Source of the DNA: Nemertoderma westbladi
Lineage: Eukaryota > Animalia > Xenacoelomorpha
NCBI GenBank assembly: GCA_032718475.1
Contig: JAUCBJ010001798.1
Span: 1-43,013, forward strand
DNA: 43,013 bases
Reading direction: 5' to 3'
Shown one piece after another: positions 5,336 to 41,585 of the stretch. The notes under the pieces were generated by a model, which did not search any database, was not told the origin of the DNA, and worked only from the letters and a program-made list of their open reading frames with translations. Position numbers and translations under genes: made by a program. Position 1 is the first letter of the stretch, and every line of letters starts with the position of its first letter.

Positions 5336-5461
5336 ACTAATATATAAGTGTTGCCCCAGTAGAAGAGGATAATTTCTACCACAATCTACAAGGAGCTACT
5401 GATGGAGTAGATCAGCATGAATCCTTAACCTTCCTGGGTGAATTTAATGCAAGCCTGCAAT

Positions 5462-5568
5462 GTCAGGGACAAGTGGCTGAACTGGTTAGCGCTACTGATG
5501 AGGCCTGATAGGCCGAAACGTACGTATAGCGCTGGTTCAACCCCCGGTGACGTGCTTTCTCATTTTTT
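5462..5568 (+). mobile_element. tRNA-derived Pol III unit (SINE/retrozyme-like) carrying a hammerhead ribozyme
   Basis: A box TGGCTGAACTGG at 5474-5485 with D-stem gctg/tagc; B box GGTTCAACCCC at 5534-5544; T6 run at 5563-5568. It interrupts the APE coding remnant just after the GEFNA motif. Confidence 0.6.
5488..5533 (+). ncRNA. Type I hammerhead ribozyme with minimal helix III
   Basis: Stem I agcgcta (5488-5494) / tagcgct (5527-5533); core CTGATGA 5495-5501; stem II ggcct-gat-aggcc 5502-5514; GAAA 5515-5518; helix III C5519-G5524 closing a palindromic GTAC loop; cleavage triplet GTA 5524-5526. Confidence 0.9.
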
Positions 5569-6770
5569 CCACTTCTTAACTAAACCATTTACATTACATC
5601 AATTACCTACAACGTCATGGGTCAACAGCAATATTGCCAACCGAAATTCAATTCAAGGATTTCATATCTTGAAATTGGTTTTTTTCAGGTGGGACCCAGT
5701 TCAAGAAGCGAACTGGAAAGTTATGACTCACAATGGACCCAGTGGTCATAAGTACCAGAATGACCATATTCTGTTTTGTAAGAAATACAGGAGCTCTATA
5801 CAAGACTGTAATGCCTTTACACTTAGACCCTTCTCCAGTGATCACCGCCTTATTGTGGCCAAGGAAAGACCTAATCTCCGCGCTAGCAAGAGACTAAGTA
5901 ATCCTAAGTAATAAGTACTAAATACTAAGTAATAAGTAATATTCATTAGATCAGACTGCTTCTAGTGTTGGTCTTTTTGTTAACTCAAATAAGAAAATTA
6001 TTGATTTAACTTCAACAGTCCTCACAAATGGGATCATGAATCTGGAAGTAGTCAGGTGAAGACCTTCGAATAAGTAGGGAAAAGAATGGCATGGGCTGCC
6101 CAGGATTTGGAATTCACATACAATACAAGAAACATAAGGTACGATCATTTAAACAGCAGTAGTACCAGGATATTCAAATATTGGAGTCCATGCTGGGCTC
6201 AAACTGCTGAGGTAACCAAATCTCTGGATGCCACATACAAAAGAATGCCACGCCGGGTTCACTGTGTCAAGTGCAATGCCCACATATCCAACCAGACACT
6301 ATATAACATTGGAGGTGTCTCATTGGTTCCCCCAAACTTCATACTTGATCAGAGCCGCCTCCGCTTCACAGGGCATTACTTTCGCCGTGAGAACCTACCT
6401 GTGCACAATATTGGGCTTTGGCAGCCTCATATAGAGAATATAAGCATGATGGACAGCCTGATGACATTCTTGAGACGCTAAAGGACACTGGCCTTGGAGA
6501 TGCTGATGATATTGCGAAAGTCATGGGTGATAGGGAGTTGTGGAGGGGCAGTTTTGTCGATAAGACGTTATAGCAATCTTAATGCAACTGCAATGCAGAA
6601 GGCAGCATCCCGATTCATAGATAGATATATAAAACCTCAATAAACGTGGGTCGGGTAACCTACAGTAAAACGATATACATTAGAACGGATTCAAGTTGTT
6701 ATTAACCATTAAAGGATTTAATGTTTTTGAATTAGATGTTATAACTGAAATTAAACTTAATTAAACTTTA

Positions 6771-9700
6771 GTTAAATAAACTACTTTAGATAGGCCCACA
6801 AAAGGGTTAAATAAACTACTTATTGTAGGACTCCAAAATGGTTAAATAAACTACTTTAGATAGGCCCACAAAAGGGTTAAATAAACTACTTATTGTAGGA
6901 CTCCAAAATGGTTAAATAAACTACTTTATGGTAGGACTCCAAAAGGGTTAAATAAACTACTTTATGGTAGGACTCCAACGGGGTTAAATAAACTACTTAG
7001 GGTAGGACTCCAAAAGGGTTAAATAAACTACTTTATGGTAGGATTCCAAAAGGGTTAAATAAACTACTTTATGGTAGGACTCCAAAAGGGTTAAATAAAC
7101 TACTTTATGGTAGGACTCCAAAAGGGTTAAATAAACTACTTTATGGTAGGACTCCAAAAGGGTTAAATAAACTAATTTATGGTAGAATTCCAAAAGGGTT
7201 AAATAAACTACTTTATGGTAGGACTCCAAAAGGGTTAAATAAACTAATTTATGGTAGGACTCCAAAAGGGTTAAATAAACTACTTTATGGTAGGATTCCA
7301 AAAGGGTTAAATAAACTACTTTATGGTAGGACTCCAAAAGGGTTAAATAAACTACTTTATGGTAGGATTCCAAAAGGGTTAAATAAACTACTTTATGGTA
7401 GGACTCCAAAAGGGTTAAATAAACTAATTTATGGTAGGACTCCAAAAGGGTTAAATAAACTACTTATTGTAGGACTCGAAAAGGGTTAAATAAACTACTT
7501 TATGGTAGGATTCCAAAAGGGTTAAATAAACTACTTTATGGTAGGACTCCAAAAGGGTTAAATAAACTACTTTATGGTAGGATTCCAAAAGGGTTAAATA
7601 AACTACTTTATGGTAGGACTCCAAAAGGGTTAAATAAACTAATTTATGGTAGGACTCCAAAAGGGTTAAATAAACTACTTTATGGTAGGACTCCAAAAGG
7701 GTTAAATAAACTACTTATTGTAGGACTCCAAAAGGATTAAATAAACTACTTTATTGTAGGACTCCAAAAGGGTTAAATAAACTACTTATTGTAGGACTCC
7801 AAAAGGGTTAAATAAACTACTTATTGTAGGACTCCAAAAGGATTAAATAAACTACTTTATGGTAGGACTCCAAAAGGGTTAAATAAACTACTTTATGGTA
7901 GGACTCCAAAAGGGTAAAATAAACTACTTTATTGTAGGACTCCAAAAGGGTTAAATAAACTACTTATTGTAGGACTCCAAAAGGGTTAAATAAACTACTT
8001 ATTGTAGGACTACAAAAGGGTTAAATAAACTACTTTATGGTAGGACTCCAAAAGGGTAAAATAAACTACTTTATTGTAGGACTCCAAAAGGGTTAAATAA
8101 ACTACTTTATGGTAGGACTCCAAAAGGGTAAAATAAACTACTTTATTGTAGGACTCCAAAAGGGTTAAATAAACTACTTATTGTAGGACTCCAAAAGGGT
8201 TAAATAAACTACTTATTGTAGGACTCCAAAAGGATTAAATAAACTACTTTATGGTAGGACTCCAAAAGGGTTAAATAAACTACTTTATTGTAGGACTCCA
8301 AAAGGGTTAAATAAACTACTTATTGTAGGACTCCAAAAGGGTTAAATAAACTACTTATTGTAGGACTCCAAAAGGATTAAAGAAACTACTTTATGGTAGG
8401 ACTCCAAAAAGGGTTAAATAAACTACTTTATGGTAGGACTCCAAAAGGGTAAAATAAACTACTTTAAGGTAGGACTCCAAAAGGGTTAAATAAACTAATT
8501 TATGGTAGGACTCCAAAGGGTTAACTAAACTACTTTATGGTAGGACTCCAAAGGGGTTAAATAAACTACTTTATGGTAGGACTACAAAAGGGTTAAATAA
8601 ACTACTTTATGGTAGGACTCCAAAAGGGTTAAATAAACTAATTTATGGTAGGACTCCAAAAGGGTTAAATAAACTACTTTATGGTAGGACTCCAAAGGGT
8701 TAACTAAACTACTTTATGGTAGGACTCCAAAGGGGTTAAATAAACTACTTTATGGTAGGACTCCAAAAGGGTTAAATAAACTACTTTATGGTAGGACTCC
8801 AAAAGGGTTAAATAAACTACTTTATGGTAGGACTCCAAAAGGGTTAAATAAACTACTTTATGGTAGGACTCCAAAAGGGTTAAATAAACTACTTTATGGT
8901 AGGACTACAAAAGGGTTAAATAAACTACTTTATGGTAGGACTCCAAAAGGGTTAAATAAACTACTTATGGTAGGACTCCAAAAGGGTAAAATAAACTACT
9001 TTATTGTAGGACTCCAAAAGGGTTAACTAAACTACTTTATGGTAGGACTCCAAAGGGGTTAAATAAACTACTTTATGGTAGGACTACAAAAGGGTTAAAT
9101 AAACTACTTTATTGTAGGACTCCAAAAGGGTTAACTAAACTACTTTATGGTAGGACTCCAAAGGGGTTAAATAAACTACTTTATGGTAGGACTACAAAAG
9201 GGTTAAATAAACTACTTTATGGTAGGACTCCAAAAGGGTAAAATAAACTACTTTATTGTAGGACTCCAAAAGGGTTAAATAAACTACTTTATGGTAGGAC
9301 TCCAAAGGGGTTAAATAAACTACTTTATGGTAGGACTACAAAAGGGTTAAATAAACTACTTTATGGTAGGACTCCAAAAGGGTAAAATAAACTACTTTAT
9401 TGTAGGACTCCAAAAGGGTTAAATAAACTACTTATTGTAGGACTCCAAAAGGGTTAAATAAACTACTTATTGTAGGACTCCAAAAGGATTAAATAAACTA
9501 CTTTATGGTAGGACTCCAAAAGGGTAAAATAAACTACTTTATTGTAGGACTCCAAAAGGGTTAAATAAACTACTTATTGTAGGACTCCAAAAGGGTTAAA
9601 TAAACTACTTTATTGTAGGACTCCAAAAGGGTTAAATAAACTACTTTATGGTAGGACTCCAAAAGGGTTAAATAAACTACTTTATGGTAGGACTCCAAAA

Positions 9701-10555
9701 GGGTTAAATAAACTACTTATTGTAGGACTCCAAAAGGGTTAAATAAACTACTTTATGGTAGGACTCCAAAAGGGTTAAATAAACTACTTATTGTAGGACT
9801 CCAAAAGGATTAAATAAACTACTTTATGGTAGGACTCCAAAAGGGTTAAATAAAATACTTACGGTAGTTCTCCAAAAGGGTTAAATAAACTACTTATTGT
9901 AGGACTCCAAAAGGGTTAAATAAACTACTTTATGGTAGGACTCCAAAAGGGTTAAATAAACTACTTTATGGTAGGACTCCAGAAGGGTTAAATAAACTAC
10001 TTATTGTAGGACTCCAAAAGGGTTAAATAAACTACTTTATGGTAGGACTCCAGAAGGGTTAAATAAACTACTTATTGTAGGACTCCAAAAGGGTTAAATA
10101 AACTACTTATTGTAGGACTCCAAAAGGGTTAAATAAACTACTTTATGGTAGGACTCCAAAAGGGTTAAATAAACTACTTTATGGTAGGACTCCAGAAGGG
10201 TTAAATAAACTACTTATGGTAGGACTCCAAAAGGGTTAAATAAACTACTTTATGGTAGGACTCCAGAAGGGTTAAATAAACTACTTATTGTAGGACTCCA
10301 GAAGGGTTAAATAAACTACTTATTGTAGGACTCCAAAAGGGTTAAATAAACTACTTTATGGTAGGACTCCAAAAGGGTTAAATAAACTACTTTATGGTAG
10401 GACTCCAAAAGGGTTAAATAAACTACTTATTGTAGGACTCCAAAAGGGTTAAATAAACTACTTATTGTAGGACTCCAAAAGGGTTAAATAAACTACTTTA
10501 TGGTAGGACTCCAAAAGGGTTAAATAAAATACTTACGGTAGTTCTCCAAAAGGGT
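6771..10555. repeat. 36-bp (35-bp variant) satellite array, roughly 105 units
   Basis: Consensus gggttaaataaactactttatggtaggactccaaaa; variant ctacttattgtagg. It gives the ESYHKVVYLTLL 12-aa artefact ORFs. Confidence 0.97.
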
Positions 10556-13129: not shown

Positions 13130-14365
13130 TTTAGGAGCCCATTTTGGCACTTAGAAGGATAATTGAAGAGTTATCAAAAAAGAAAGACAGGAATCTGGCT
13201 GTTATCTTTGTTGACTTCTTCAAGGCCTTTGATTCAGTCTCTCGCTCACGTATGTTCAGCATACTTTCATTATATGGGATTCCTGATGAAATTATTGCAG
13301 CAATCAGATCAGTATACGATGGTTCGACAACATTTGTGTCTACTGTTGACGGTGACACAGAACCATTTGAAGTGTTATGGGGCGTCCTCCAAGGAGACAC
13401 ACTTGCACCATTCTTGTTCATTATTGTGGTTGACTATGTTCTACGCATGTCCTTAGATCATCATAATGATGATGGGGTGATGATAACTCCACCTACTGGC
13501 TCCAGAAGTCGAGGAAATCCTGCCAAGTACCTAACTGATCTAGACTTTGCTGATGACTTAGGAGTACTCTCAGAATCATTAGAGGGAGCCCAGCGGCTCC
13601 TCAGCTCATTAGAACATGCTGCTTCTAGTGTTGGTCTTTTTATTAACTCCAGAAAGACCAAAATTCTGACAGTTAACTTTGAAAGTCCTCAGCAAGTCTC
13701 TGATCGGATGAGCATAAGCTCAAAGGATGGTATGCTTGAGCATGTGGACGACTTCTGTTACCTGGGATCATGGATCCGGAAGTCAGGTGAGGACCTTCGA
13801 ATACGTAAGGGAAAGGCATGGGCAGCCTTGAATAGGCTTTCCAGGATTTGGAAGTCACCTAGAATTAATCGGAAACTTAAGGTCCGATTATTTAGAGCAG
13901 CAGTAGTTCCAGTACTCCTCTACGGGAGTCCATGCTGGGCTCTAACTGCTGAGGACACCAAATCTCTGGATGGCACATTCACAAGAATGCTACGCCGGGT
14001 ACATTGTGTCAAGTACAATGCACACATCTCCAACCAGACACTATATAACATTGGAGGTGTCTCATTGGTTCCCCCAAGCTTGACACTAGAACAAAATCGC
14101 CTCCGCTTTGCAGGACATTGCTTTCGCCGTGAGGACCAGCCAGTGCATAATCTTGTACTTTGGCAGCCTCATGGAGTGAATAAGCATGGTGGACAGCCCA
14201 TGACTTTCTTGAGACGCATCTTAAAGGACACTGGCCTTAAAGATGCGGATGATCTAGCAAATGTCATGGGTGATAGGGAGTTGTGGCGGTGCAATTTTGT
14301 TGACAAGCCGGCACAGCATTATTAAAAATGCAGCTGCAATGCAGCATGCCGATCCTAGTAGTAGT
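13130..14365 (+). mobile_element. 5'-truncated RTE family A LINE with an uninterrupted RT C-terminal ORF (13144-14325)
   Basis: FVDFFKAFDSV, GVLQGDTLAPFLFIIVVDYVLR, LDFADD, YLGSWI, LLYGSPCW and RLRFAGHCFR motifs; short 3' UTR aatgcagctgcaatgcagcatgccgatcc and a tagtagtag tail. Confidence 0.96.
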
Positions 14366-15510
14366 ACAGATTCTATCATATGGGATTCCTGAGGAAATTA
14401 TTGCAGCTATCCGATCACTGTACGATGGTTCCACCACATTTGTGTCAAATGCTGATGGTGAGACAGATCCATTCGAAGTCTTATGGGGAGTCCTTCAGGG
14501 TGACACAGATGTACCAATCTTATTCATAATTGTGGTTGACTATGTTCTACGCATGTCCTTAGACCATCTTAATAAAGATGGGGTGATGGTAACACCCACC
14601 TACTGGCACAAGAAGTAGAGAAAATCCAGCAAAGTACCTTACTGCTAGACTTTGCTGATTACTTAGGGGTACACTGTCAGAATCAAAAGAGGGCTCCTCT
14701 GCTCATTGGAGCAGGTTGCTTCTAGTGTTGGTCTTTTTGTAAACTCTAAGAAGACCAAAATCATGACAGTAAACCTAGGCAGCCCTCAAGAAATGTCTGA
14801 TCGTAAGGGCATAAGCTCTAAGGATAGCTTGCTTGAGCACATGGATGACTTCTGCTTCTTGGGATCATGGATCTGAAAGTCAGATACGTAAGATACGTAA
14901 GGGGATGGGCAGCGTTAAATAGTCTGTCCAGGATTTGGAAGTCCCATAGAATAAAACGGAACCTTAAGGTTCGATTATTTATGGCAGTAGTAGTACCAGT
15001 AATCTTATATGGGAGTCCATGCTGGGCTCTAACTGCAGAGGATACCAAATCTCTGGATAGCACTTTCACAAGAATGCTGCGTAGGGTTCATTGTGTCAAG
15101 TACAATGAATACAACTCCAACCCACTACAACATTGGTGCTGTTTCATTATTCTCCCCTAGGTTGACACTTGAACGGAACCGCCTCCGCTTTTCAGGACAT
15201 TGCTTTCACCGTAAGGACCAGCCAGTGCATAATCTTGTGCTTCTTCGGCCTCACGGAGCAAATAACCATGGTGGACATCCCATGACTTTCTTGAGACGGA
15301 AAATAACACTGGCCTTGAAGATGCGGATGATCTAGCAAATGTCATGGGTGATAAGGAGTTATGGCAGCGCAATTTTTGACGACAAGCCGGCACAGCATTC
15401 TTAATGTATTTATATTATCAATCATCCTTCTTTATTTTTCTTCTATCCTATTAATCATTCTTAATGTTCTTTGTGTAATATATATATAATGCAGCTGCAA
15501 TGCAGCATGT
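14366..15510 (+). mobile_element. Second, more decayed 5'-truncated RTE family A copy, head-to-tail with the first
   Basis: Starts at SYGIPEEIIAAIRSLYDGSTT directly after the first copy's tail. It is collinear with 13270-14350 but has stops and frameshifts, and its 3' UTR is split by an AT-rich insert at ~15406-15490. Confidence 0.93.
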
Positions 15511-21839: not shown

Positions 21840-23695
21840 CTGTATATCTAGCAACTTTAGTATACTCTCATATGTTGGTACTAGTTCCCAAGAAAGGCGA
21901 CCTAACAACACAAGGATCTTTTCATGGAATTACGTTGATCTCGATTACTGCAAAGCTATACAATATAATTATTGAATCGCATCATGGATCCCATCTAGAG
22001 ACTATGCTACGCGGGAACTAAAATGGGTTCCGTTATGATCGTGGGATATTGGGGCCCATTCTGTCCCTCAGAAGGATAATTGGAGTTATCAACAAAGAAA
22101 GACAGGCATTTGCATGTTGTCCATCTTTACTTCTTTAAGGCCTTCGATTCAGTCTCCCGACCGACGTATGTTGAGCATTGTTTGCATATTATTGTAGCTA
22201 TCAGATCACTGTACGATGGTTCCACAACATGTGTGTCTACTGCTGATGGTCACACAGATCCATTCGTAGTCTTATGGAGAGTCCTTCAGGGGGATACACT
22301 TGCACAATTCTTATTCATAATTCTGGTTGATTATGTTCTACGCATGTCCTGTCCTTAGACCATCTTAATAAAGATGGGTAGAGGAAGCCCAGAGGCTCCT
22401 CTGCTCATTGGAGCAGGCTGCTTCTAGTGTTGGTCTTTGTGTAAATTCCAAAAAGACCAAAATCATGACAGTCAACCTAGACAGCCGTCAAGAAATGTCT
22501 GATCGTAAGGGCATAAGCTCTAACGATGGCTTGATTGAGCAAGTGGATTGAGCAAGTATGTATATGTAATGTATATGGGGTGACGATAACCGTAACAAGG
22601 AACAACCCCTACTGGCATAAGAAGTAGAGGAAATCCAGCAAAGTACCTTACTGATCTAGAATTTGTTGACGACTTAGGAATAATCTCAGAATCCGCCTCC
22701 CCACCTCATTGGAGCAGGCTGCTTCTAGTGTAGACTTTTTGTCTTGTTAAAACCAAGAAGACCAAAATGTTGACAGTAGTTTGCTTTGGTTTTTTGGCTG
22801 CCCTCGATGAAAAATGTCCGATCTTGGTGGTATGTTTGGCATGTATATGACTTCTACATACCGGAAACAAGTTGAAGGAAGACCTTCGAATACCTAAGGG
22901 GAAGTCATGGCACTGAGGGCAGCATTGAATAATGGGCTGCCCTGTCCATGATTTTAAATCACACAATACTCCTATAATTTATTATTGGTGTTATGGGTGA
23001 ATGAGTGGTTGACTGTAGGGTTGAGTACAGTGGCAGCATATGATGGTATTGACAGATGGTAGGCCATGAGGAGGTAAATTGCGGACATACAAGGTATCAG
23101 GTAGTATTTCCAGGTCTATCTTTTACCTGAGCCGCTAGCTGAATGGTTAGAGCCTAGAGCGTCAGACTTCCAACCCGGAGGTCACCAGTTCGATCCCACC
23201 TGGACGTCATTGCCGACTTTGCAAAAGCTGTGCCCAACAAAAAGTTACAATACTCGTATGAGATTCCATGCTGATGGGCTCTAGCTGAGGATACAATCTT
23301 TGGATGGCATTTACACAAGAATGCTAAGCAGAGTTTATTATGTCAATACAAAGCACGCGCACACATCTTCAACCCAGATCCTATACAGCATTGGAGGTTT
23401 CTCAGTTCGTCCCGCCAAGCTGACATTTGAACATAGCCGCCGGCACATTCAGGACTTTGTTTTCGCCATGAGGACCAGCCCGTTGGTGGCCTCATGGATA
23501 AAACTTGCATGGTGGGCAGCCGATGACTTTCTTGAGTTATGCGCCTCTAACAGGACACTGACCTTGAAGATTGCGGATATTTTTCTCGTGAAAGTGATGG
23601 GGTATAGGGAGTTGTGGCTTTGCAAAATTGTCGATAAGTTGACATAGCATTCTTAATGCAAGCTTCATTGTAGCATGCGGATCGTAAATAGATAG
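21840..23695 (+). mobile_element. Decayed, rearranged RTE family A locus (RT N-terminus to 3' tail) with a nested insertion
   Basis: LVPKKGDLT...GITLISITAKLYN near 21880-21965; FFKAFDSVSR and VLQGDTLAQFLFII; LEFVDDLG at ~22655-22680; 3' end tagcattcttaatgca...tagatag at ~23645-23695. Confidence 0.88.
23129..23210 (+). mobile_element. tRNA-derived SINE head or tRNA pseudogene
   Basis: A box tagctgaatgg followed by ttagagc (tagagc duplicated), anticodon-like arm tcaga-cttccaa-cccgga, B box agttcgatccc. The acceptor and T stems are not intact. Confidence 0.65.
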
Positions 23696-24840: not shown

Positions 24841-26436
24841 TGCTGCCATATAGCCCAAGGAAATGTTTTGCTGCCATATAGCCCAAGGAAATGTTTTGCT
24901 GCCATATAGCCCAAGGAAATGTTTTGCTGCCATATAGCCCAAGGAAATGTTTTGCTGCCGTATAGCCCAAGGAAATGTTTTGCTGCCATATAGCCCAAGG
25001 AAATGTTTTGCTGCCGTATAGCCCAAGGAAATGTTTTGCTGCCATATAGCCCAAGGAAATGTTTTGCTGCCATATAGCCCAAGGAAATGTTTTGCTGCCA
25101 TATAGCCCAAGGAAATGTTTTGCTGCCGTATAGCCCAAGGAAATGTTTTGCTGCCATATAGCCCAAGGAAATGTTTTGCTGCCGTATAGCCCAAGGAAAT
25201 GTTTTGCTGCCATATAGCCCAAGGAAATGTTTTGCTGCCATATAGCCCAAGGAAATGTTTTGCTGCCATATAGCCCAAGGAAATGTTTTGCTGCCATATA
25301 GCCCAAGGAAATGTTTTGCTGCCATATAGCCCAAGGAAATGTTTTGCTGCCATATAGCCCAAGGAAATGTTTTGCTGCCATATAGCCCAAGGAAATGTTT
25401 TGCTGCCATATAGCCCAAGGAAATGTTTTGCTGCCATATAGCCCAAGGAAATGTTTTGCTGCCATATAGCCCAAGGAAATGTTTTGCTGCCATATAGCCC
25501 AAGGAAATGTTTTGCTGCCATATAGCCCAAGGAAATGTTTTGCTGCCATATAGCCCAAGGAAATGTTTTGCTGCCATATAGCCCAAGGAAATGTTTTGCT
25601 GCCATATAGCCCAAGGAAATGTTTTGCTGCCATATAGCCCAAGGAAATGTTTTGCTGCCGTATAGCCCAAGGAAATGTTTTGCTGCCATATAGCCCAAGG
25701 AAATGTTTTGCTGCCATATAGCCCAAGGAAATGTTTTGCTGCCATATAGCCCAAGGAAATGTTTTGCTGCCATATAGCCCAAGGAAATGTTTTGCTGCCA
25801 TATAGCCCAAGGAAATGTTTTGCTGCCATATAGCCCAAGGAAATGTTTTGCTGCCATATAGCCCAAGGAAATGTTTTGCTGCCGTATAGCCCAAGGAAAT
25901 GTTTTGCTGCCATATAGCCCAAGGAAATGTTTTGCTGCCATATAGCCCAAGGAAATGTTTTGCTGCCATATAGCCCAAGGAAATGTTTTGCTGCCATATA
26001 GCCCAAGGAAATGTTTTGCTGCCGTATAGCCCAAGGAAATGTTTTGCTGCCATATAGCCCAAGGAAATGTTTTGCTGCCATATAGCCCAAGGAAATGTTT
26101 TGCTGCCATATAGCCCAAGGAAATGTTTTGCTGCCATATAGCCCAAGGAAATGTTTTGCTGCCATATAGCCCAAGGAAATGTTTTGCTGCCATATAGCCC
26201 AAGGAAATGTTTTGCTGCCATATAGCCCAAGGAAATGTTTTGCTGCCGTATAGCCCAAGGAAATGTTTTGCTGCCATATAGCCCAAGGAAATGTTTTGCT
26301 GCCATATAGCCCAATGAAATGTTTTGCTGCCATATAGCCCAAGGAAATGTTTTGCTGCCATATAGCCCAAGGAAATGTTTTGCTGCCGTATAGCCCAAGG
26401 AAATGTTTTGCTGCCATATAGCCCAAGGAAATGTTT
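24841..26436. repeat. 28-bp minisatellite, 57 units, highly homogeneous
   Basis: tgctgccatatagcccaaggaaatgttt; 1596 bp = 57 x 28; essentially one recurrent variant (ccata/ccgta) plus one caatg. Confidence 0.98.
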
Positions 26437-27394
26437 TCGCCGACTTGTAAGGATGATAAGAATCTCGCGGGAAAAGAACAAGATAGTTTATTTTTTTCAT
26501 TTTCACGTTCTCGCTAACCGATACATTATTGCACATTTATTTTTAATTTGATACTATCGTAGTAATTATTATCAGTATTCCATTCCCATGAACCAATATT
26601 CCAATATGTCGTTTCAACTAATGGACTACGAGCTGAGAGGGTTCGGGTTGGTCAATTATTGTGAAACTGTTACTCTGATTTTGCCTCACATAATGAATCC
26701 ATCAGTGACCTCCTAGGGCAATGAAATATTCATTTCACACCTTCATACGCCGGAATTGGAGATAATAGTTAGCTGATTTATATTTGTATATTAGAATATT
26801 CCACGGGCACTCTATATAGGCAGGGTGCAAAGAAGCTCCATAATGCCTTGATCAGCCATTAACACTTATGTTATCTAAGTTTTCCATGGAGATCCTAATC
26901 AATATTAAGAGGAAAGTAGTGCCGATCCCATTAATAGTAATGTCAGCCCACTTTCATTTGTATCACCTAAGCGGAAACCCCGCATACAGGAACCGATTAA
27001 AACTCTTTGGAGCGAACACGGCCAAGGAGCCCATATCAGGGATTCAAATCAGTTACGCTACCTACATTCTTCTATTAACTAACTCTGTTAGGCAATTCAA
27101 AATATTTTACTGCTGTGTTGATGGCCTGGAACCCAATGCTGGAGTGAGAAATCTTCTAAATGATGGCCTGGCCACCCAACCAAACACTGAACCTTTAACC
27201 TGGGTCGCTGCCTGCCGGAGTCCTCGTGGGAATGCGGGAAGACAAAGCACCCTGAGGTGACTCCTATAGGATTCCGGCATGTCGGGATGGGTTGCGATTA
27301 TTTTTTATTTATTCCCAGAATTTATCTTGACGGTTTCTTTTATTAATGAAGATTTGGTGCGCCATTGGTTATGTCTGTCCCTACAGCATACATT

Positions 27395-27858
27395 GTGGCG
27401 TGGCGTGGCGTGGCGTGGCGTGGCGTGGCGTGGCGTGGCGTGGCGTGGCGTGGCGTGGCGTGGCGTGGCGTGGCGTGGCGTGGCGTGGCGTGGCGTGGCG
27501 TGGCGTGGCGTGGCGTGGCGTGGCGTGGCGTGGCGTGGCGTGGCGTGGCGTGGCGTGGCGTGGCGTGGCGTGGCGTGGCGTGGCGTGGCGTGGCGTGGCG
27601 TGGCGTGGCGTGGCGTGGCGTGGCGTGGCGTGGCGTGGCGTGGCGTGGCGTGGCGTGGCGTGGCGTGGCGTGGCGTGGCGTGGCGTGGCGTGGCGTGGCG
27701 TGGCGTGGCGTGGCGTGGCGTGGCGTGGCGTGGCGTGGCGTGGCGGCGTGGCGTGGCGTGGCGTGGCGTGGCGTGGCGTGGCGCGGCGTGGCGTGGCGTG
27801 GCGCGGCGTGGCGCGGCGTGGCGTGGCGCGGCGTGGCGTGGCGTGGTGTGGCGTGACG
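27395..27858. repeat. (TGGCG)n pentanucleotide array, about 90 units
   Basis: Direct reading; it degenerates at the right end. Confidence 0.98.
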
Positions 27859-28239
27859 TGGACTATATTACCAATTCCTCATTCCTAACAACCTGCACGA
27901 TGCTTATCCAGCGGCATTCCTTGGTTAACGATACCAAACGCCGGCTAACTATGTCGCAGCGCGGTGGATGGGCCCACTTGGCCCTGGGCTATCCGACGGC
28001 CAACCAATACAACTGATTGAGGAAGATGAACTATCCTGCAGGAACTAATTAATCGCGGATCCATTCTATTTCGCCCGTTTGGACGCTCAGGCCTCCTACC
28101 GTAGATTGGACGACATGCATGATCTATCTTTTGTCTCACAATAATTTACTGTATCTTAATTTTACTGAATTTCCTTTGATTATTTTTTAACCATTCAGAA
28201 TTTACTTAATTTAGTTTGGGTTATTGATATTTGATTTTA

Positions 28240-29095
28240 ATTATCACTGTAACGCTCTTTCTATAACTTTTATTATCATTGTAACGCTCTTTCTGTAACT
28301 TATATTATCATTGTAACGCTCTTTCTGTAACTTTTATTATCATTGTAACGCCCTTTCTGTAGCTTTTATTATCATTGTAACGCTCTTTCTATAACTTTTA
28401 TTATCATTGTAACGCTCTTTCTGTAACTTTTATTATCATTGTAACGCTCTTTCTATAACTTTTATTATCATTGTAACGCTCTTCCTGTAACTTTTATTAT
28501 CATTGTAACGCTCTTTCTGTAACTTTTATTATCATTGTAACGCTATTTCTGTAACTTTTATTATCATTGTAACGCTCTTTCTGTAACTTTTATTATCATT
28601 GTAACGCTCCTTCTGTAACTTTTATTATCATTGTAACGCTCTTTCTGTAACTTTTATTATCATTGTAACGCTCTTTCTATAACTTTTATTGTCATTGTAA
28701 CGCTCTTTCTGTAACTTTTATTATCATTGTAACGCTCTTTCTGTAACTTTTATTATCATTGTAACGCTCTTTCTATAACTTTTATTATCACTGTAACGCT
28801 CTTTCTGTAACTTTTATTATCATTGTAACGCTCTTTCTGTAACTTTTATTATCATTGTAACGCTCTTTCTGTAACTTTTATTATCATTGTAACGCTCTTT
28901 CTGTAACTTTTATTATCATTGTAACGCTCTTTCTGTAACTTTTATTATCATTGTAACGCTCTTTCTGTAACTTTTATTATCATTGTAACGCTCTTTCTGT
29001 AGCTTTTATTATCACTGTAACGCTCTTTCTGTAACTTTTATTATCATTGTAACGCTCTTTCTGTAACTTTTATTATCATTGTAACGATCTTTCTA
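28240..29095. repeat. 32-bp minisatellite, about 26 units
   Basis: ctttctgtaacttttattatcattgtaacgct repeated; it ends about 25 bp before the transposon TIR. Confidence 0.96.
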
Positions 29096-29120: not shown

Positions 29121-31420
29121 CACTGAACAACAAAAATTTTTGACAAGAATTGTAAAGGTTGCCCCTAGGACAGTTTTCCATGTAGATTCCAAATCTGCAG
29201 TCCTTTTTCCACCATCACGTAAGGATTTTCTGTAATTTTAAGAATTATATTTTACAGATATAGAGTATTCTTTACGAAAAGGGAAAAGCATAATGGCATA
29301 TGAACGTTAATTTGATATACTGTAGGGCCTACTAACACTAACAGTAGGCCTATAATAACCCACTATTATATAGTAGGCCTATATTGTAGTGCCTCGACTG
29401 TTTGGAGGGAATTTCAAAATCTAATTGTATGCCCTTCTGCTGATGTGTGTTTATTATACTTATTGTGAGTTTCAAGAAACAGCATAAAACGACTACAGCC
29501 TAGCCTACTAGCACTAGCCGCTAGGTAGGACTAATACAGTAGGCTGACACCGGTTAACTGTAATATTATTTAATATTATAAGTAGCAGTCTATCACAATG
29601 TCGCGAACTTGTTTAAATCATCCTAACTTATTTTGCTATATTTGTGGAGAATACACTATAAAGACTGACCGCAGAAATATAACACCGCATGTAAAGAAAC
29701 TAGATTACTTATACTTTGGAGTTCATCTCGGTGATCAGGATAAAAAGTGGGCTCCGCATATATGTTGCTCTTCATGTGTAACGAACTTTGGAATTCGGAA
29801 TTTCAATCTCATTTGGAATTCCTATGATTTGGAGGGAGCAACAAAATCATGTCACTGATTGCTACTTCTGCATGGTTCCTCCCGTAGCTGGTCACAACAA
29901 GAAAACCAAGAAATCTCGTGTGTTTCCAAATGTCCCGTCTGCGATACGGCCAGTAGAGCACTGTGACCAGATTACAGTGCCAGTTCCACCAGATACTATA
30001 AAGGAAACTGACGATTCAACAACCGGCACTGACGACGATGATACGTATGAACCAGGACCCCAAGAGTTGGAAGTTCCCCATTTAGTAACGCAGGGTGATC
30101 TTAATGATTTAGTTAGATATCTGGCTTTAACAAAGGCTCAAAGTGAACTGCTGGGATCTCGCCTTCAGGATTGAAATTTACTCCAGAGAGGAACTAAAGT
30201 AACGGTTTATAGGAAGCGCACAGCAGACTTGACCCAAATCTTCTCTAAAGAGGAAGATGTCTGTTTTAGCAATGATGTTCCCCGTTTGTTCAGCCTTGGC
30301 ACAGGCCATGATCCCACTGATTGGAGACTCTTTATAGATGGTTCTACTAAGAGTATTAAAGCCGTCCTTTTACAAATGGTAATGTGTATCCATCGGTACC
30401 TGTAGCTCACTCCATAGCTAGAAAAGAGTCATATGAAACACTGAAGGTAATTCTTAGGTTAATAAAGTACTCGGAACATCAGTGGTCTATCTGTGCTGAT
30501 TTGAAAGTTATAGCTATATTCCAGGGACTCCAAACGGGTTTTACAAAGTACATGTGCTTCATTTGCTTATGGGACAGTCGAGCACGAGCAACCCACTACA
30601 CTAGATGTGAATGGCCAGACCGAACACCCGACATCATAGGTTGTAGCAATGTAATTGCAGAACCACTAGTTCCAAAATCAAAAATGCTGCTACCTCCACT
30701 ACACATTAAACTCGGGCTAATGAAACAATTTGTTAAAACACTAGATAAAGATGGTGCTGCATTTCAGTACCTTGTTACCAAGTTCTCTAAACTCAGTCAG
30801 GTTAAAATTAAGGAGGGAATATTTCTGGGACCTTAAATTCGAGAAGTTATTAAAGATCCGAACTTCAACGAAGTACTCATGTCTACAAATGAGTTTAGAG
30901 CCTGGGATTCTTTTCAACGAATTTGCAGTGGATTTCTAGGAAACAATAAGGTTGAGAATTATATTGATCTTCTGGGTAAATTGGTTGATAGCTATAAGAT
31001 GCTCGGTTGCAACATGTCTTTGAAGTTACACTTCCTCCACTCACACTTAGATTTCTTTCCTCCCAACATGGGTGCTGTAAGTGATGAGCACTAGGAAAGA
31101 TCCCACCAAGATATTGCAGTTATGGAGAAGCGATATCAGGAAAGATGGAGCCCTGCCATGTTGGCCGATTTCTGCTGGATGCTGCGACGCGATCAGCCAG
31201 CAGCCAGTATATATTCATGCTATTCAGTATTCACCCTTCAGCTTCAATTCACTGATCCACTTCAATGAGACTATATAGCGATATTGCGATTAATTAAAAA
31301 TTATGTATTTCTCATGTAACTTTTTTTGCGACGTGATATGAAAAATCTGATTGCAGATTTGGAATCAGTGAACAAAACTGCTATGTGTCATGGCCATATC
31401 AAAAAATTTGTTATTCAGTG
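29121..31420 (+). mobile_element. Chapaev3-type (CMC superfamily) DNA transposon, full span, 2300 bp
   Basis: Termini cactgaacaacaaaaattttt / aaaaaatttgttattcagtg; subterminal inverted gattccaaatctgca / tgcagatttggaatc; encloses a transposase remnant. Confidence 0.88.
29598..31200 (+). pseudogene. Chapaev3-type transposase with frameshifts and stops
   Basis: Cys-rich Chapa region (CLNHPNLFCYICGEY, GDQDKKWAPHICC, WREQQNHVTDCYFC); WRLFIDGSTKSIKAVLL; CADLKV; LPPLHIKLGLMKQFVK; NMSLKLHFLHSHLDFFPPNMGAVSDEH*ERSHQDI. Split over several frames. Confidence 0.88.
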
Positions 31421-36052: not shown

Positions 36053-36297
36053 GGCCCATGTGACGAATACCACACTTTCTGCTGTTATATTTCACTTTTC
36101 AGTTTACCCCCATGTGAAGAATTCCAGGTTTTCACTAAAACCACAGGTTTCAGAAGGGCTGAATCTAACCAAAACAATTGTCGAATTAAAATATGTACAG
36201 AGATTATAAGACAGAAAAAAAAATCAAATTCTTCATATATAAAATTCCAATAAAATGTCAACCGAAAAGTGAAAACCTGGTATTCTTCACAAGGGCG
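36053..36297 (+). mobile_element. Third copy of the GCCCATGTGAAG-TIR MITE
   Basis: ggcccatgtgacgaatacc...ggtattcttcacaagggcg, collinear with 18101-18378; flanks taaattc / caaattc. Confidence 0.88.
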
Positions 36298-36937
36298 CAA
36301 ATTCAGCTTACGTAGACTAAATTCAGTCTTAAGTTTATTCAATCGCGATAAAGGTTTTTTTTTTGCAAATTAATGTTTTTCTATGTATAGAACAACAATT
36401 TTCTTTGTTGTTTCGATTAAATTATCAATAAATTTGATTGTGTGCTTAATACAATATTGGATAGAAGAGCCAGTATTTTATTGATTACATAAAGGCCAGT
36501 CTAAATTCATTTATCCCTTTGAGATCCCGGTAGTAATTATAGTATAGTAATTACAGATTATTCATTGGATATGACGACGCTGGGGCTACTAAGCAAGACT
36601 CAAGCAACAACTAAGTTATTGTTGATCTTCCTTTGATCTCCTATTCATTCCAACCAATAGTACAATATCCAAGTGAAAGTTCACTTGGTAGGCACTAAGT
36701 GTTTCAGTTCGGAATACTAATATGTCGACTTCGTTAAACACTGCTCCCCATAAACATTATAATGATAAGTAATATATATATATTGAATTACAATAACAAA
36801 TTCAATGAGGATATTTTATTATAGTAACTTACCAAGTGTAATAAAAATGGGTATAAATGTACTACGGTATTTTTAAAAATGGCGAATACTTGAATTTTCA
36901 CGTTATCAATTTTATTTTCGTTAAACGACCCTACGCT

Positions 36938-38570
36938 GACACCACTCCGCCGACACCATGTAGACAATGTGTCGCCACTTGTCAGACATTGCCGATACAA
37001 TGTAGACGCCGTCCCGATAATGTGCAAACGACACATCGTGCTTTCGTGTGTCAGAGTGCAGTCGGACAATGTGGGCACTGTGTCGGAGTGGTGTCTGCAC
37101 AATGTGGGCACTGTGTCGGAGTGGTGTCGGCACAATGTGGGTACTGAATCGGAGTGGTGTCGGTACAATGTGGTCACTGTGTCGGAGTGGTGTCGGTATA
37201 ATGTGGGCACTGTGTCGGAGTGGTGTCGGCACAATGTGGTCACTGTGTCAGAGTGCAGTCGGTACAATGTGGGCACTGTGTCGGAGTGGTGTCGGTACAA
37301 TGTGGTCACTGTGTCGTTGTGGTGTCGGTACAATCTGGTCACTGTGTCGGAGTGGTGTCGGTACAATGTGGGCACTGTATCGGAGTGGTGTCGGTACAAT
37401 GTGGTCACTGTGTCGGAGTGGTGTCGGTACAATGTGGTCACTGTGTCTGAATGATGTCGGTACAAAGTGGTCACTATGTCGGAGTGGTGTCGGTAAAATG
37501 TGCGCACTGTGACGGAATGGTGTCGGTACAATGTGGTCACTGTGTCGGAGTGGTGTCGGTACAATGCGGGCACTGTGTCGGAGTGGTGTCTGCACAATGT
37601 GGGCACTGTGTCGGAGTGGTGTCGGCACAATGTGGGCACTGTGTCGGAGTGGTGTCTGTACAATGTGGTCACTGTGTCAGAGTGCAGTCGGTACAATGTG
37701 GGCACTGTGTCGGAGTGGTGTCGGTACAATGTGGTCACTGTGTCGTAGTGGTGTCGGTACAATGTGGTCACTGTGTCGGAGTGGTGTCGGTACAATGTGG
37801 TCTCTGTGTCGGAGTGGTCTCGGTACAATGTGGGCACTGTGTCGGAGTGGTGTCGGTATAAAGTGGGCACTGTGTCGGAGTGGTGTCGGTGCAATGTGGG
37901 CACTGTGTCGGAGTGGTGTCGGTACAATGTGGCCTCTGTGTCGGAGTGGTGTCGGTATAATGTGGGCACTGTGTCGGAGTGGTGTCGGTACAATGTGGTC
38001 ACTGTGTCAGAGTGCAGTCGGTACAATGTGGGCACTGTGTCGGAGTGGTGTCGGTACAATGTGGTCACTGTGTCGTTGTGGTGTCGGTACAATCTGGTCA
38101 CTGTGTCGGAGTGGTGTCGGTACAATGTGGGCACTGTGTCGGAGTGGTGTCGGTAAAATGTGGTCACTGCGTCGTAGTGGTGTCGGTACAATGTGGTCAC
38201 TGTGTCGGAGTGGTGTCGGTACAATGTGGTCACTGTGTCGGAGTGGTCTCGGTACAATGTGGGCACTGTGTCGGAGTGGTGCCGGTATAATGTGGGCACT
38301 GTGTTGGAGTGGTGTCGGTGCAATGTGGGCACTGTGTCGGAGTGGTGTCGGTACAATGTGGTCTCTGTGTCGGAGTGGTGTCGGTACAATTCGGTCACTG
38401 TGTCGGAGTGGTGTCGGTAAAATGTCGTCACTGTGTCGGAGTGGTGTCGGTACAATGTGGTCACTGTGTCGGAGTGGTATCGGTACAATGTGGTCACTGT
38501 GTCGGAGTGGTATCGGTACAATGTGGTCGCTGTGTCGGAGTGGTATCGGTACAATGTGGTCACTGCGTCG
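36938..38570. repeat. 33-bp minisatellite built from three 11-bp subunits, with a degenerate, partly inverted left end
   Basis: gtgtcggtaca-atgtggtcact-gtgtcggagtg; gacaccactccg at ~36938 is the reverse complement of the unit. Confidence 0.95.
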
Positions 38571-38681
38571 TATTGTCACGGTTTTCGCGTCAACCTCATC
38601 AATGAAATTATGTTATTATTTCAATAAATATTAAATAATTGAAAAATCGAGAAATGCTAAATCATCACTCATGAAAAATAA

Positions 38682-39188
38682 AATCTCACTCATATGCTTC
38701 CCTATCACATAGATTTCCCCAATCTCACTCATATGCTTCCCTATCACATAGATTTCCCCAATCTCACTCATATGCTTCCCTATCACATAGATTTCCCCAA
38801 TCTCACTCATATGCTTCCCTATCACATAGATTTCCCCAATCTCACTCATATGCTTCCCTATCACATAGATTTCCCCAATCTCACTCATATGCTTCCCTAT
38901 CACATAGATTTCCCCAATCTCACTCATATGCTTCCCTATCACATAGATTTCCCCAATCTCACTCATATGCTTCCCTATCACATAGATTTCCCCAATCTCA
39001 CTCATATGCTTCCCTATCACATAGATTTCCCCAATCTCACTCATATGCTTCCCTATCACATAGATTTCCCCAATCTCACTCATATGCTTCCCTATCACAT
39101 AGATTTCCCCAATCTCACTCATATGCTTCCCTATCACATAGATTTCCCCAATCTCACTCATATGCTTCCCTATCACATAGATTTCCCC
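38682..39188. repeat. 39-bp minisatellite, 13 apparently identical units
   Basis: aatctcactcatatgcttccctatcacatagatttcccc; 507 bp = 13 x 39. Confidence 0.98.
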
Positions 39189-39556
39189 TAACTAGTATAG
39201 TTATAACTGTTTACATACCGGTTCTTGTGGTTTAAAAGTAACAGTCCTGAAACGAAAGTTTGGTACACGTACGACCGTGTCACCTGTACAATGACGTCGT
39301 CTGCTGGAAGTTGTGATAGTTCATATTGTATGGTATGTTAAATATATGGTTGGTTATATCAATATCTTTGTAGTACTTCTCTGGTGTTAGTTAGATCTGA
39401 GGTACTTTTGGAACAATACAATACATATTAATTATGTTCTGTATATTAATATACGGAACTGAGAAATCTAACGCTGAATCACACCGCACCGCCCCCTTCT
39501 TCAAGAAAACCTTGGCTCACCCAGATTCCATAGTTACCTTGACCCGGTCGCAGACC

Positions 39557-40707
39557 CCACGACCTTGTCTTGGGACAACCACAACCGTGTCTAGGAACAA
39601 CCACGACCGTGTCTCGGAACAACCAAGACCGTGTCTCGGAACAACCACGACCGTATCTAGGAACAACCATCACCACCGTGTCTCGGAACTACCATGACCG
39701 TGTCTCGGAACAACCAAGACCGTGTCTCGGAACAACCACGACCGTGTCTCTGAACAACCACGACCGTGTCTCGGAACAACCATGCCCGTGTCTCGGAACA
39801 ACCAAGACCGTGTCTCGGAACAACCACGACCGTGTAACCACGACCGTGTCTCGGAACAACCACGACCGTGTCTCGGAACAACCACGACCGTGTCTCGGAA
39901 CAACCACGACCGTGTCTCGGAACAACCACGACCTTGTCTCTGAACAACCACGACCGTGTCTCTGAACAACCACGGCCGTGTCCCGGAACAACCACAACCG
40001 TGTCTCTGAACAACCACGACCGTGTCTCTGAACAACCACGGCCGTGTCTCGGAACAACATGACCGTGTCTCGGAACAACCACGACCGTGTCTCGGAACAA
40101 CCACGACCGTGTCTCGGAACTACCATGAACGTGTCTCGGAACAACCACGACCGTGTCTCGGAACAACCACGACCGTGTCTCGGAACAACCACGACCGTGT
40201 CTCGGAACAACCACGACCGTGTCTCGGAACAACCACGACCGTGTCTCGGAACTACCACGGCCGTGTCTCGGACCAACCACGACCGTGTCTCGGAACAACC
40301 ACGACCGTGTCTCGGAACTACCATGACCGTGTCTCGGAACTTCCATGATCGTGTCTCGGAACAACCACGACCGTGTCTCGGAACAACCACGACCGTGTCT
40401 CGGAACTACCACGACCGTGTCTCGGAACTACCATGACCGTGTCTCGAAACAACCACGACCGTGTCTCGGAACAACCACGACCGTGTCTCGGAACAACCAC
40501 GACCGTGTCTCGGAACAACCACGACCTTGTCTCGGAACAACCATGACCGTGTCTCGGAACAACCACGACCGTGTCTCGGAACAACCACGACCGTGTCTCG
40601 GAACAACCACGACCGTGTCTCAGAACACCACGACCGTGTCTCGGAACAACCAAGACGGTGTCTCGGAACAACCACGACCGTGTCTCAGAACAACCACGAC
40701 CGTGTCT
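39557..40707. repeat. 22-bp minisatellite, about 52 units
   Basis: gaccgtgtctcggaacaaccac with scattered variants. Confidence 0.97.
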
Positions 40708-41184: not shown

Positions 41185-41585
41185 GTGGCGTGGCGTGGCG
41201 TGGCGTGGCGTGGCGTGGCGTGGCGTGGCGTGGCGTGGCGTGGCGTGGCGTGGCGTGGCGTGGCGTGGCGTGGCGTGGCGTGGCGTGGCGTGGCGTGGCG
41301 TGGCGTGGCGTGGCGTGGCGTGGCGTGGCGTGGCGTGGCGTGGCGTGGCGTGGCGTGGCGTGGCGTGGCGTGGCGTGGCGTGGCGTGGCGTGGCGTGGCG
41401 TGCGTGGCGTGGCGTGGCGTGGCGTGGCGTGGCGTGGCGTGGCGTGGCGTGGCGTGGCGTGGCGTGGCGTGGCGTGGCGTGGCGTGGCGTGGCGTGGCGT
41501 GGCGTGGCGTGGCGTGGCGTGGCGTGGCGTGGCGTGGCGTGGCGTGGCGTGGCGTGGCGTGGCGTGGCGTGGCGTGGCGTGGCGT
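41185..41585. repeat. Second (TGGCG)n array, about 80 units
   Basis: Direct reading; a single 1-nt deletion near 41401. Confidence 0.98.

Follow-up and report, generated by a model that had tools for sequence, protein, structure and literature searches.

A type I hammerhead ribozyme motif is found between the A box and the B box of a tRNA-type RNA polymerase III (Pol III) promoter in the DNA of Nemertoderma westbladi, with conservation of the boxes and of the ribozyme core across the copies of the dispersed repeat that carries them. The window analysed, i.e. the whole stretch of 43,013 nt, holds one copy of this repeat, ~138 bp long, at 5461-5598 of the forward strand, to which all coordinates of the repeat refer. 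On balance we favour reading it as the solo LTR (TGT...TTACA) of a Helenus-type miniature LTR retrotransposon, whose ribozyme would cut out, and likely circularise, the element's own RNA. The layout is unusual and conserved and makes the repeat a member of neither retrozyme class as these are defined.

The hammerhead motif (5488-5533) was recognised by pattern match, Rfam and folding. It is composed of a 7-bp stem I (5488-5494/5527-5533), CTGATGA (5495-5501), a 5-bp stem II (5502-5506/5510-5514) with a UGAUA-type loop, GAAA (5515-5518), a 2-bp helix III (C5519-G5524) with a GTAC loop, the loop region being palindromic, and a GTA cleavage triplet (5524-5526). Hence the core, stems I, II and III and the NUH triplet that characterise a type I hammerhead are all present. 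Hammerheads cut after the NUH triplet, here GUA, and self-cleavage is predicted between 5526 and 5527. On the two sides of the motif lie the A box (5474-5485), a 12-nt form of TRGYnnARBGG, and the B box (5534-5544), which matches GGTTCRAnYCY at 11 of 11 positions, followed by a Pol III terminator-like run of six T (T6, 5563-5568); the boxes fit the type 2 promoter consensus in the part of PMC7279448 that gives it. On inspection of the sequence the hammerhead parts, both boxes and T6 all stand at the positions given in the original prediction, and the motif between the two boxes is real. Both stem I strands (5487-5494 and 5527-5533) are one and the same palindrome, so that each could self-pair or pair with another copy.

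The hammerhead pattern, searched with no stem demanded, occurs once in the window and was matched in 2 of 100 shuffles. The Rfam check proposed for the motif was borne out in part: Hammerhead_1 aligns to 5489-5532 with 26.4 bits (E=0.00039) but under its gathering score of 34, at which nothing is reported across the whole window. The sole A-box/B-box pair of the window is the one flanking the hammerhead, and the chance of both boxes lying at most 40 nt from a given site is ~4e-6 under a dinucleotide model. The gap between the boxes is 48 nt, compared with the usual 30-40 nt. The hammerhead had also been thought to replace the anticodon and variable arms of a tRNA, which does not hold for the RNA, as it has no such cloverleaf: no tRNA was called by ARAGORN or Rfam, and the D-stem overlaps stem I. 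Indeed, the 4 bp of the supposedly intact D-stem are there, but they share 5488-5490 with stem I and the two helices cannot form at the same time. A working tRNA or a tRNA intron was ruled out, given the lack of a tRNA call and a cloverleaf-like fold of -12.1 kcal/mol compared with -28.7 kcal/mol for the ribozyme fold. Furthermore, the intact tRNA-like head upstream of the ribozyme that is a trait of tRNA-derived SINEs of the Sm-alpha type is not found in this repeat, the ribozyme being placed between the boxes.

The copies were studied through public contigs aligned to the stretch, in four of the six listed runs and then in run X2, where 981 of 1,581,921 contigs match a stretch of 190 bp. Contig depth in X2 begins in the bin 5457-5463 and stops in the bin 5597-5603, the other runs being alike, and among the eight listed X2 pieces four begin at 5461 and one at 5462, two of these starts lying hundreds of letters inside their contigs. 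Contig coverage assigns to the repeat a 30-bp U5-like tail beyond T6 (5569-5598) that ends in TTACA; the loose-end consensus of the contigs behind 5588 runs on to ATTACA, and the 3' end is uncertain within 5598-5600. Summed depth over the repeat in X2 is near 1e5, compared with 2-55 for listed single-locus contigs, which suggests thousands of copies in the genome, summed depth being no copy number as such. It rises from 5527 onward, which could reflect copies that start at the cut site, although contig depth is unable to show such copies. The prediction of a small non-autonomous element therefore stands in that the unit is small, non-coding and multi-copy, but it does not extend from the A box to T6 since it runs ~30 bp beyond the latter. 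Neither a poly-A, A-rich or simple-repeat tail nor a long target duplication, both traits of tRNA-derived SINEs of the Sm-alpha type, was found. The window contains no second copy and no second hammerhead, and so none of the tandem units that mark animal non-LTR retrozymes, although arrays may exist elsewhere and escape notice in contigs. Patterns for the repeat family or its architecture had no match in viral contigs, and the family motif had none in prokaryotic genomes.

The motif sits in an insertion, since the flanks of the repeat are the two halves of one decayed LINE endonuclease region. The 5' part (5341-5460) is recognised by tblastn of relatives, which align to 5350-5469, and the 3' part (5600-5908) has 37 relatives at E<=0.001 in a full HMMER search, with PF14529 in six of the eight relatives scanned; the same relatives align to both 5350-5469 and 5612-5908 in tblastn. 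The decayed flank itself was not recognised by Pfam, PDB, a word-indexed protein search or plasmid tblastn. The interrupted LINE is presumably of the RTE clade. A candidate 4-bp target duplication is formed by GCAA (5457-5460) and TCAA (5599-5602), which match at three of four letters; the sequence agrees equally with a duplication of 3 bp or 2 bp without mismatch, or with no duplication. Whichever duplication is assumed, the host LINE lacks one codon compared with its closest relative (8 residues instead of 9).

The DNA of the window as a whole is animal-like and rich in repeats, among them numerous LINE fragments and satellites. Decayed endonuclease/reverse-transcriptase LINE copies lie at 1394-2626, 5341-6598, 13135-15398 and 22083-23661, and 13135-14325 retains a 396-codon open frame with RVT_1. 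Inverted repeats of 133 nt, 93% complementary and 1009 nt apart (16979-17111/18121-18253), have a MITE-like appearance, with related pieces at 36103-36305. Two frames in 29782-30836, which we take to resemble a DNA-transposon protein, gave no Pfam match. Long young tandem arrays occupy 6771-10555, 24841-26437, 27395-27861, 28236-29094, 37047-40707 and 41185-41585, with periods of 36, 28, 5, 32, 33, 39, 22 and 5.

Variation among the copies was taken as the places varying at >=1% in X2, i.e. from a single run whose contigs were weighted by depth, aligned to the copy in the window and unphased. The repeat has 17 such places. None falls among the 12 positions of the A box, the 11 of the B box or the 11 of the catalytic core, so that the conservation of both boxes that had been asked about is confirmed, and no variant is listed for T6. 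In the stems 2 of 26 positions vary, one changing a G-C pair to G.U and one breaking a pair. Within the ribozyme the changes affect N7, loops II and III and, as a minor allele seen in five contigs (5526 A>C), the cleavage triplet, where GUC replaces GUA. Taken together, 2 of 60 constrained and 15 of 52 free positions vary (Fisher p=3e-4), with classes set after the variant list had been seen. The stem covariation that had been looked for did not appear: no compensatory pair is seen among these unphased contig variants. The pair 5522:5553 was considered as compensatory and rejected, as T5553 of the window copy is explicable as CpG decay of the common C, and no covariation is claimed.

According to the folding predictions, RNA growing from 5461 holds stem I with P ~0.9 from the time it reaches 5533 until it reaches 5555, and the A box (5478-5483) pairs with the B box as a distal helix I. 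The 8-nt helix III region is palindromic, with a duplex of -9.8 kcal/mol, and thus permits the dimer fold known for hammerheads with a palindromic helix III, as described in part in PMC4209133. Downstream, the strand 5550-5564 is complementary to two halves of the catalytic core and is a predicted off-switch: it forms 15 of 15 pairs with the core halves (G.U allowed), which is reached in 3 of 20000 shuffles, and 1 of 400 shuffled tails blocks as well, the target of blocking having been chosen once the fold had been seen. For the window allele a switch to the blocked fold is predicted once 5559-5564 have been made, and stem I has P 0.09 in the finished transcript. When 5553 is held unpaired, which mimics the commonest allele, the blocked fold has P ~0.01-0.13 and the active fold P 0.76-0.9. 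The off-switch is hence a lead and no family-wide result. The element folded as a whole is no stabler than shuffles (z -0.8 to -1.6).

The reading as a Helenus-type LTR is suggested by the ends of the repeat and by what lies next to them. TG at 5461 is sharp and CA at 5598 fits, yet TC follows it in both the consensus and the window; the consensus behind ACA reads TCTT..., not TGG, and the repeat end may lie 1-2 bp further. In X2 the same 5' edge has two kinds of neighbour: 17 contigs carry long, unrelated flanks (agreement 0.65), and in 17 there is a purine-rich sequence that they share (agreement 0.84). The latter stands directly before TG, is known from a 30-letter loose-end consensus only and is absent from the window by motif search. 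Purines make up 20 of the 26 letters at its end (p=0.005, the last two letters being taken from the second consensus row and the stretch chosen after viewing), and this end resembles by eye the 3' end of the internal region of a fish Helenus. Neither the window nor the contigs revealed a second LTR, an internal region or a primer-binding site, though junction contigs may fail to align as the window copy diverges near its 3' end. Against an LTR, the two sides of the 4-bp duplication differ at one letter although the copy is young, and the loss of one host codon has to be assumed. Moreover, the repeat begins where Pol III is predicted to start, as a SINE does, with the A box 13 nt from the edge.

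This coincidence, which is what a tRNA-derived SINE of the Sm-alpha type would show at its 5' end, is among the points for another reading, which is close to the original prediction and which we hold to be possible, if not probable: a Pol III-driven retrozyme or SINE-like repeat, non-LTR and Sm-alpha-like, that is multiplied by the enzyme of a Penelope element or of a LINE. Complete copies would then begin at the transcription start, and the shared upstream sequence would be the spacer of a longer tandem unit. Sm-alpha already joins a tRNA-derived promoter and a hammerhead, and animal type I hammerheads are, in the parts of the literature covered, mostly found in Penelope-related elements (PMC7229834; bioRxiv 10.64898/2026.07.22.740005); the lack of a clean target duplication and the TC shared after ACA point the same way. 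However, the TGT...TTACA ends and the purine tract right before TG would be a coincidence, and there is no A-rich or repeat tail. The joints seen in contigs bear on both readings. Four of them link 5461 head-to-head to 5504-5522, with none listed in the same orientation, and their side lengths fit the 5' inversions of non-LTR insertion; but inverted joints occur in only 3 of 981 X2 contigs, a rate that nested insertion could yield, and they could be nested insertions or one event. Two further joints, from run X3, go from 5545-5568 back to 5528 as short tandem pieces, one base past the predicted cut, which would suit the Sm-alpha-like reading, both having a depth of 11.6 and perhaps being one locus. 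Among the joints listed, none runs head-to-tail from the 3' end to 5461, and the contigs show no position where many molecules begin.

Two further explanations touch the ribozyme and the boxes themselves. The repeat could be an ordinary Helenus-type LTR or SINE that carries its hammerhead along as a passenger, cleavage in vivo having been lost and the RNA being copied uncut by the normal route. The predicted blocking of the core in the finished transcript of the window allele would agree with this, a Penelope element is described as transposing in vitro without needing cleavage (PMC11167929), and in the part of the frog retrozyme data covered 8 of 9 tested dimers failed to cleave (bioRxiv 10.64898/2026.07.22.740005). 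We nevertheless find it improbable, as the changes seen (at N7 and in loops II and III, the G.U that closes the base of stem II, and GUC for GUA) are of the kind that leaves a hammerhead functional, and 11 of 11 core positions are free of them. It is even less credible that the boxes are due to chance, i.e. that an ordinary retrozyme or Penelope fragment has a long stem I merely resembling an A and a B box. Six letters of each box do pair mutually, so that RNA structure alone could conserve part of the boxes, but the unpaired box letters are conserved too, the full match of the B box and the joint chance given above stand against it, and the T run and layout are those of tRNA-derived LTRs.

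The LTR reading was compared with known systems. Helenus is a tRNA-type TRIMp3 (Kojima 2024, PMC10886601), and the tRNA-derived A and B boxes that mark it are present in the window repeat, which is likewise short, starts with TGT, probably ends in ACA and has an A box, a B box, a T run and a short tail. As judged by eye, the order TGT, A box, B box, T run, ACA is found in nearly all animal LTRs examined among those of that paper; the length of the repeat lies within the range it gives, many solo copies are common to both, and a purine tract before TG would be so as well. By contrast, the window repeat has a type I hammerhead between its more widely spaced boxes and no cloverleaf, and while two LTRs, a primer-binding site and a clean 4-bp duplication are Helenus traits, it is known as a lone copy and from contigs. 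Motif searches of the PMC10886601 supplement, as far as covered, gave no published Helenus family matching it. Plant LTR retrozymes, in the portion of their description drawn on here (Cervera 2016, PMC4918200), share with it a hammerhead in an LTR-like repeat, a complementary blocking strand and solo LTRs, but theirs is a type III hammerhead in an LTR of 300-400 bp for which no internal Pol III promoter is described there. As the hammerhead of the window is of type I, the element would work like an LTR retrozyme without being a member of that class.

Sm-alpha and Sj-alpha of Schistosoma, as presented in the sections of PMC6765202 and PMC2770079 used here, have a tRNA-derived Pol III promoter and a type I hammerhead, are high-copy and restore the promoter only via multimers. 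They are, however, SINE-like and tandem, whereas the repeat studied here has LTR-like ends and its cut site between the boxes; the view in the original prediction that the layout differs from Sm-alpha was correct, the promoter there preceding the hammerhead (PMC6765202). Animal non-LTR retrozymes have in common with the repeat a canonical type I hammerhead, a 2-bp helix III and a palindromic tetraloop. In the material covered (PMC7229834; bioRxiv 10.64898/2026.07.22.740005) they are tandem units of 170-400 bp with no LTR, PBS, PPT or described promoter, the lack of LTR, PBS and PPT being also given in the parts of two reviews that treat them (PMC7761336, PMC7229834), whereas the window copy stands alone with sharp ends and boxes.

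Hammerhead motifs can also be read in other repeats with tRNA-type boxes. In the covered part of the Helenus supplement of PMC10886601, CTGATGA has eight matches, CTGACGA none and CTGAAGA two, motifs split by a line end being missed. Two of the eight CTGATGA matches belong to the LTRs of Helenus-2_SyJa and Helenus-2_SyUm, from gall wasps, in which a full type III hammerhead can be read by eye. Its loops I and II are complementary, it lies beyond the B box with no T run between, and it is identical in both species; in the text of that paper, as far as covered, the word hammerhead occurs only in a reference and the wasp motif is unmentioned. The combination of an LTR with tRNA-type boxes and a hammerhead therefore exists, although the wasp ribozyme is of type III and beyond the B box while that of the window is of type I and between the boxes. 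A general hammerhead-plus-B-box pattern matched six metagenome and six prokaryotic loci, of which eight are chance matches without a stem II and were rejected; an A box was found by pattern in 0 of the 12. The remaining four are one repeat, unrelated to that of the window, whose identical end occupies positions 1-126 of the metagenome contigs L001, L002, L003 and L006 with different flanks that look eukaryotic and are perhaps fungal. Stem I of its type III hammerhead (Rfam E=0.00035) is a hairpin resembling a D arm, its B box is held by a stem resembling a T arm, and its end is CA-like, the 5' part being cut by the contig starts. This repeat is the weaker support, since the B box was part of the search pattern and the A-box-like hairpin fails the A-box pattern.

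By analogy with plant LTR retrozymes, animal retrozymes and Helenus, we infer a cycle of cleavage, host ligation, circle formation and copying by a Gypsy-type partner for the element proposed here. Pol III would start near 5462 in the 5' LTR and the ribozyme would fold first, with the A box paired to the B box as distal helix I. The RNA would be cut after 5526, by the monomer or by a dimer formed through the palindromic helix III. As T6 sits 37 nt past the cut, Pol III should stop in the 5' LTR and full-length RNA needs read-through; some transcripts may thus pass T6, or arise by Pol II read-through, cross the internal region and undergo a second cut in the 3' LTR. For Cassandra, transcription is reported to continue through the first repeat and to end in the second, and a T run stands by eye at the place of T6 in most animal Helenus LTRs. 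A host ligase would then join the ends into one whole LTR with both boxes restored, in agreement with the original argument that a cut promoter is restored only through a multimer or a circle, the logic of which holds. The 5550-5564 strand may stop the circle from recutting, and a blocked ribozyme in the circle is part of the plant LTR retrozyme cycle as PMC4918200 describes it in the section concerned. Finally, a Gypsy-type reverse transcriptase and integrase would copy the circle back. A solo LTR like the window copy would yield only a 107-nt RNA, cleaved into pieces of ~65 and 42 nt.

In the full-text literature, to which subscription journals, Repbase and the supplements of the bioRxiv preprint and the retrozyme papers did not belong, no description of a Helenus LTR with a hammerhead, or of a hammerhead flanked by an A and a B box, was found, and the layout likely joins features that have until now been known from different kinds of element. 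The favoured reading would make the element an LTR retrozyme of an animal that brings along a Pol III promoter. More tentatively, the boxes would double as promoter and distal ribozyme helix, cleavage would divide the promoter, and the closing of the circle would both restore it and switch the ribozyme off; together with the wasp Helenus LTRs and the metagenome repeat, tRNA-promoter LTRs would have captured hammerheads several times independently, as an unrecognised group bridging Helenus, plant LTR retrozymes and animal retrozymes, a wider proposal that we put forward with considerable doubt. Under the Sm-alpha-like reading the repeat would still be a new layout of the Sm-alpha design. Retrozymes are described in the part of PMC7761336 concerned as LTR-type with type III hammerheads in plants and non-LTR with type I in animals, with no promoter of their own. 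If the LTR reading is true, a type I hammerhead in an animal Pol III LTR would contradict both this class division and the promoter-less description. It would also make experimentally accessible the question of how LTR elements transcribed by Pol III set the ends of their RNA, because the cut sites and the 107-nt test transcript are predicted exactly.
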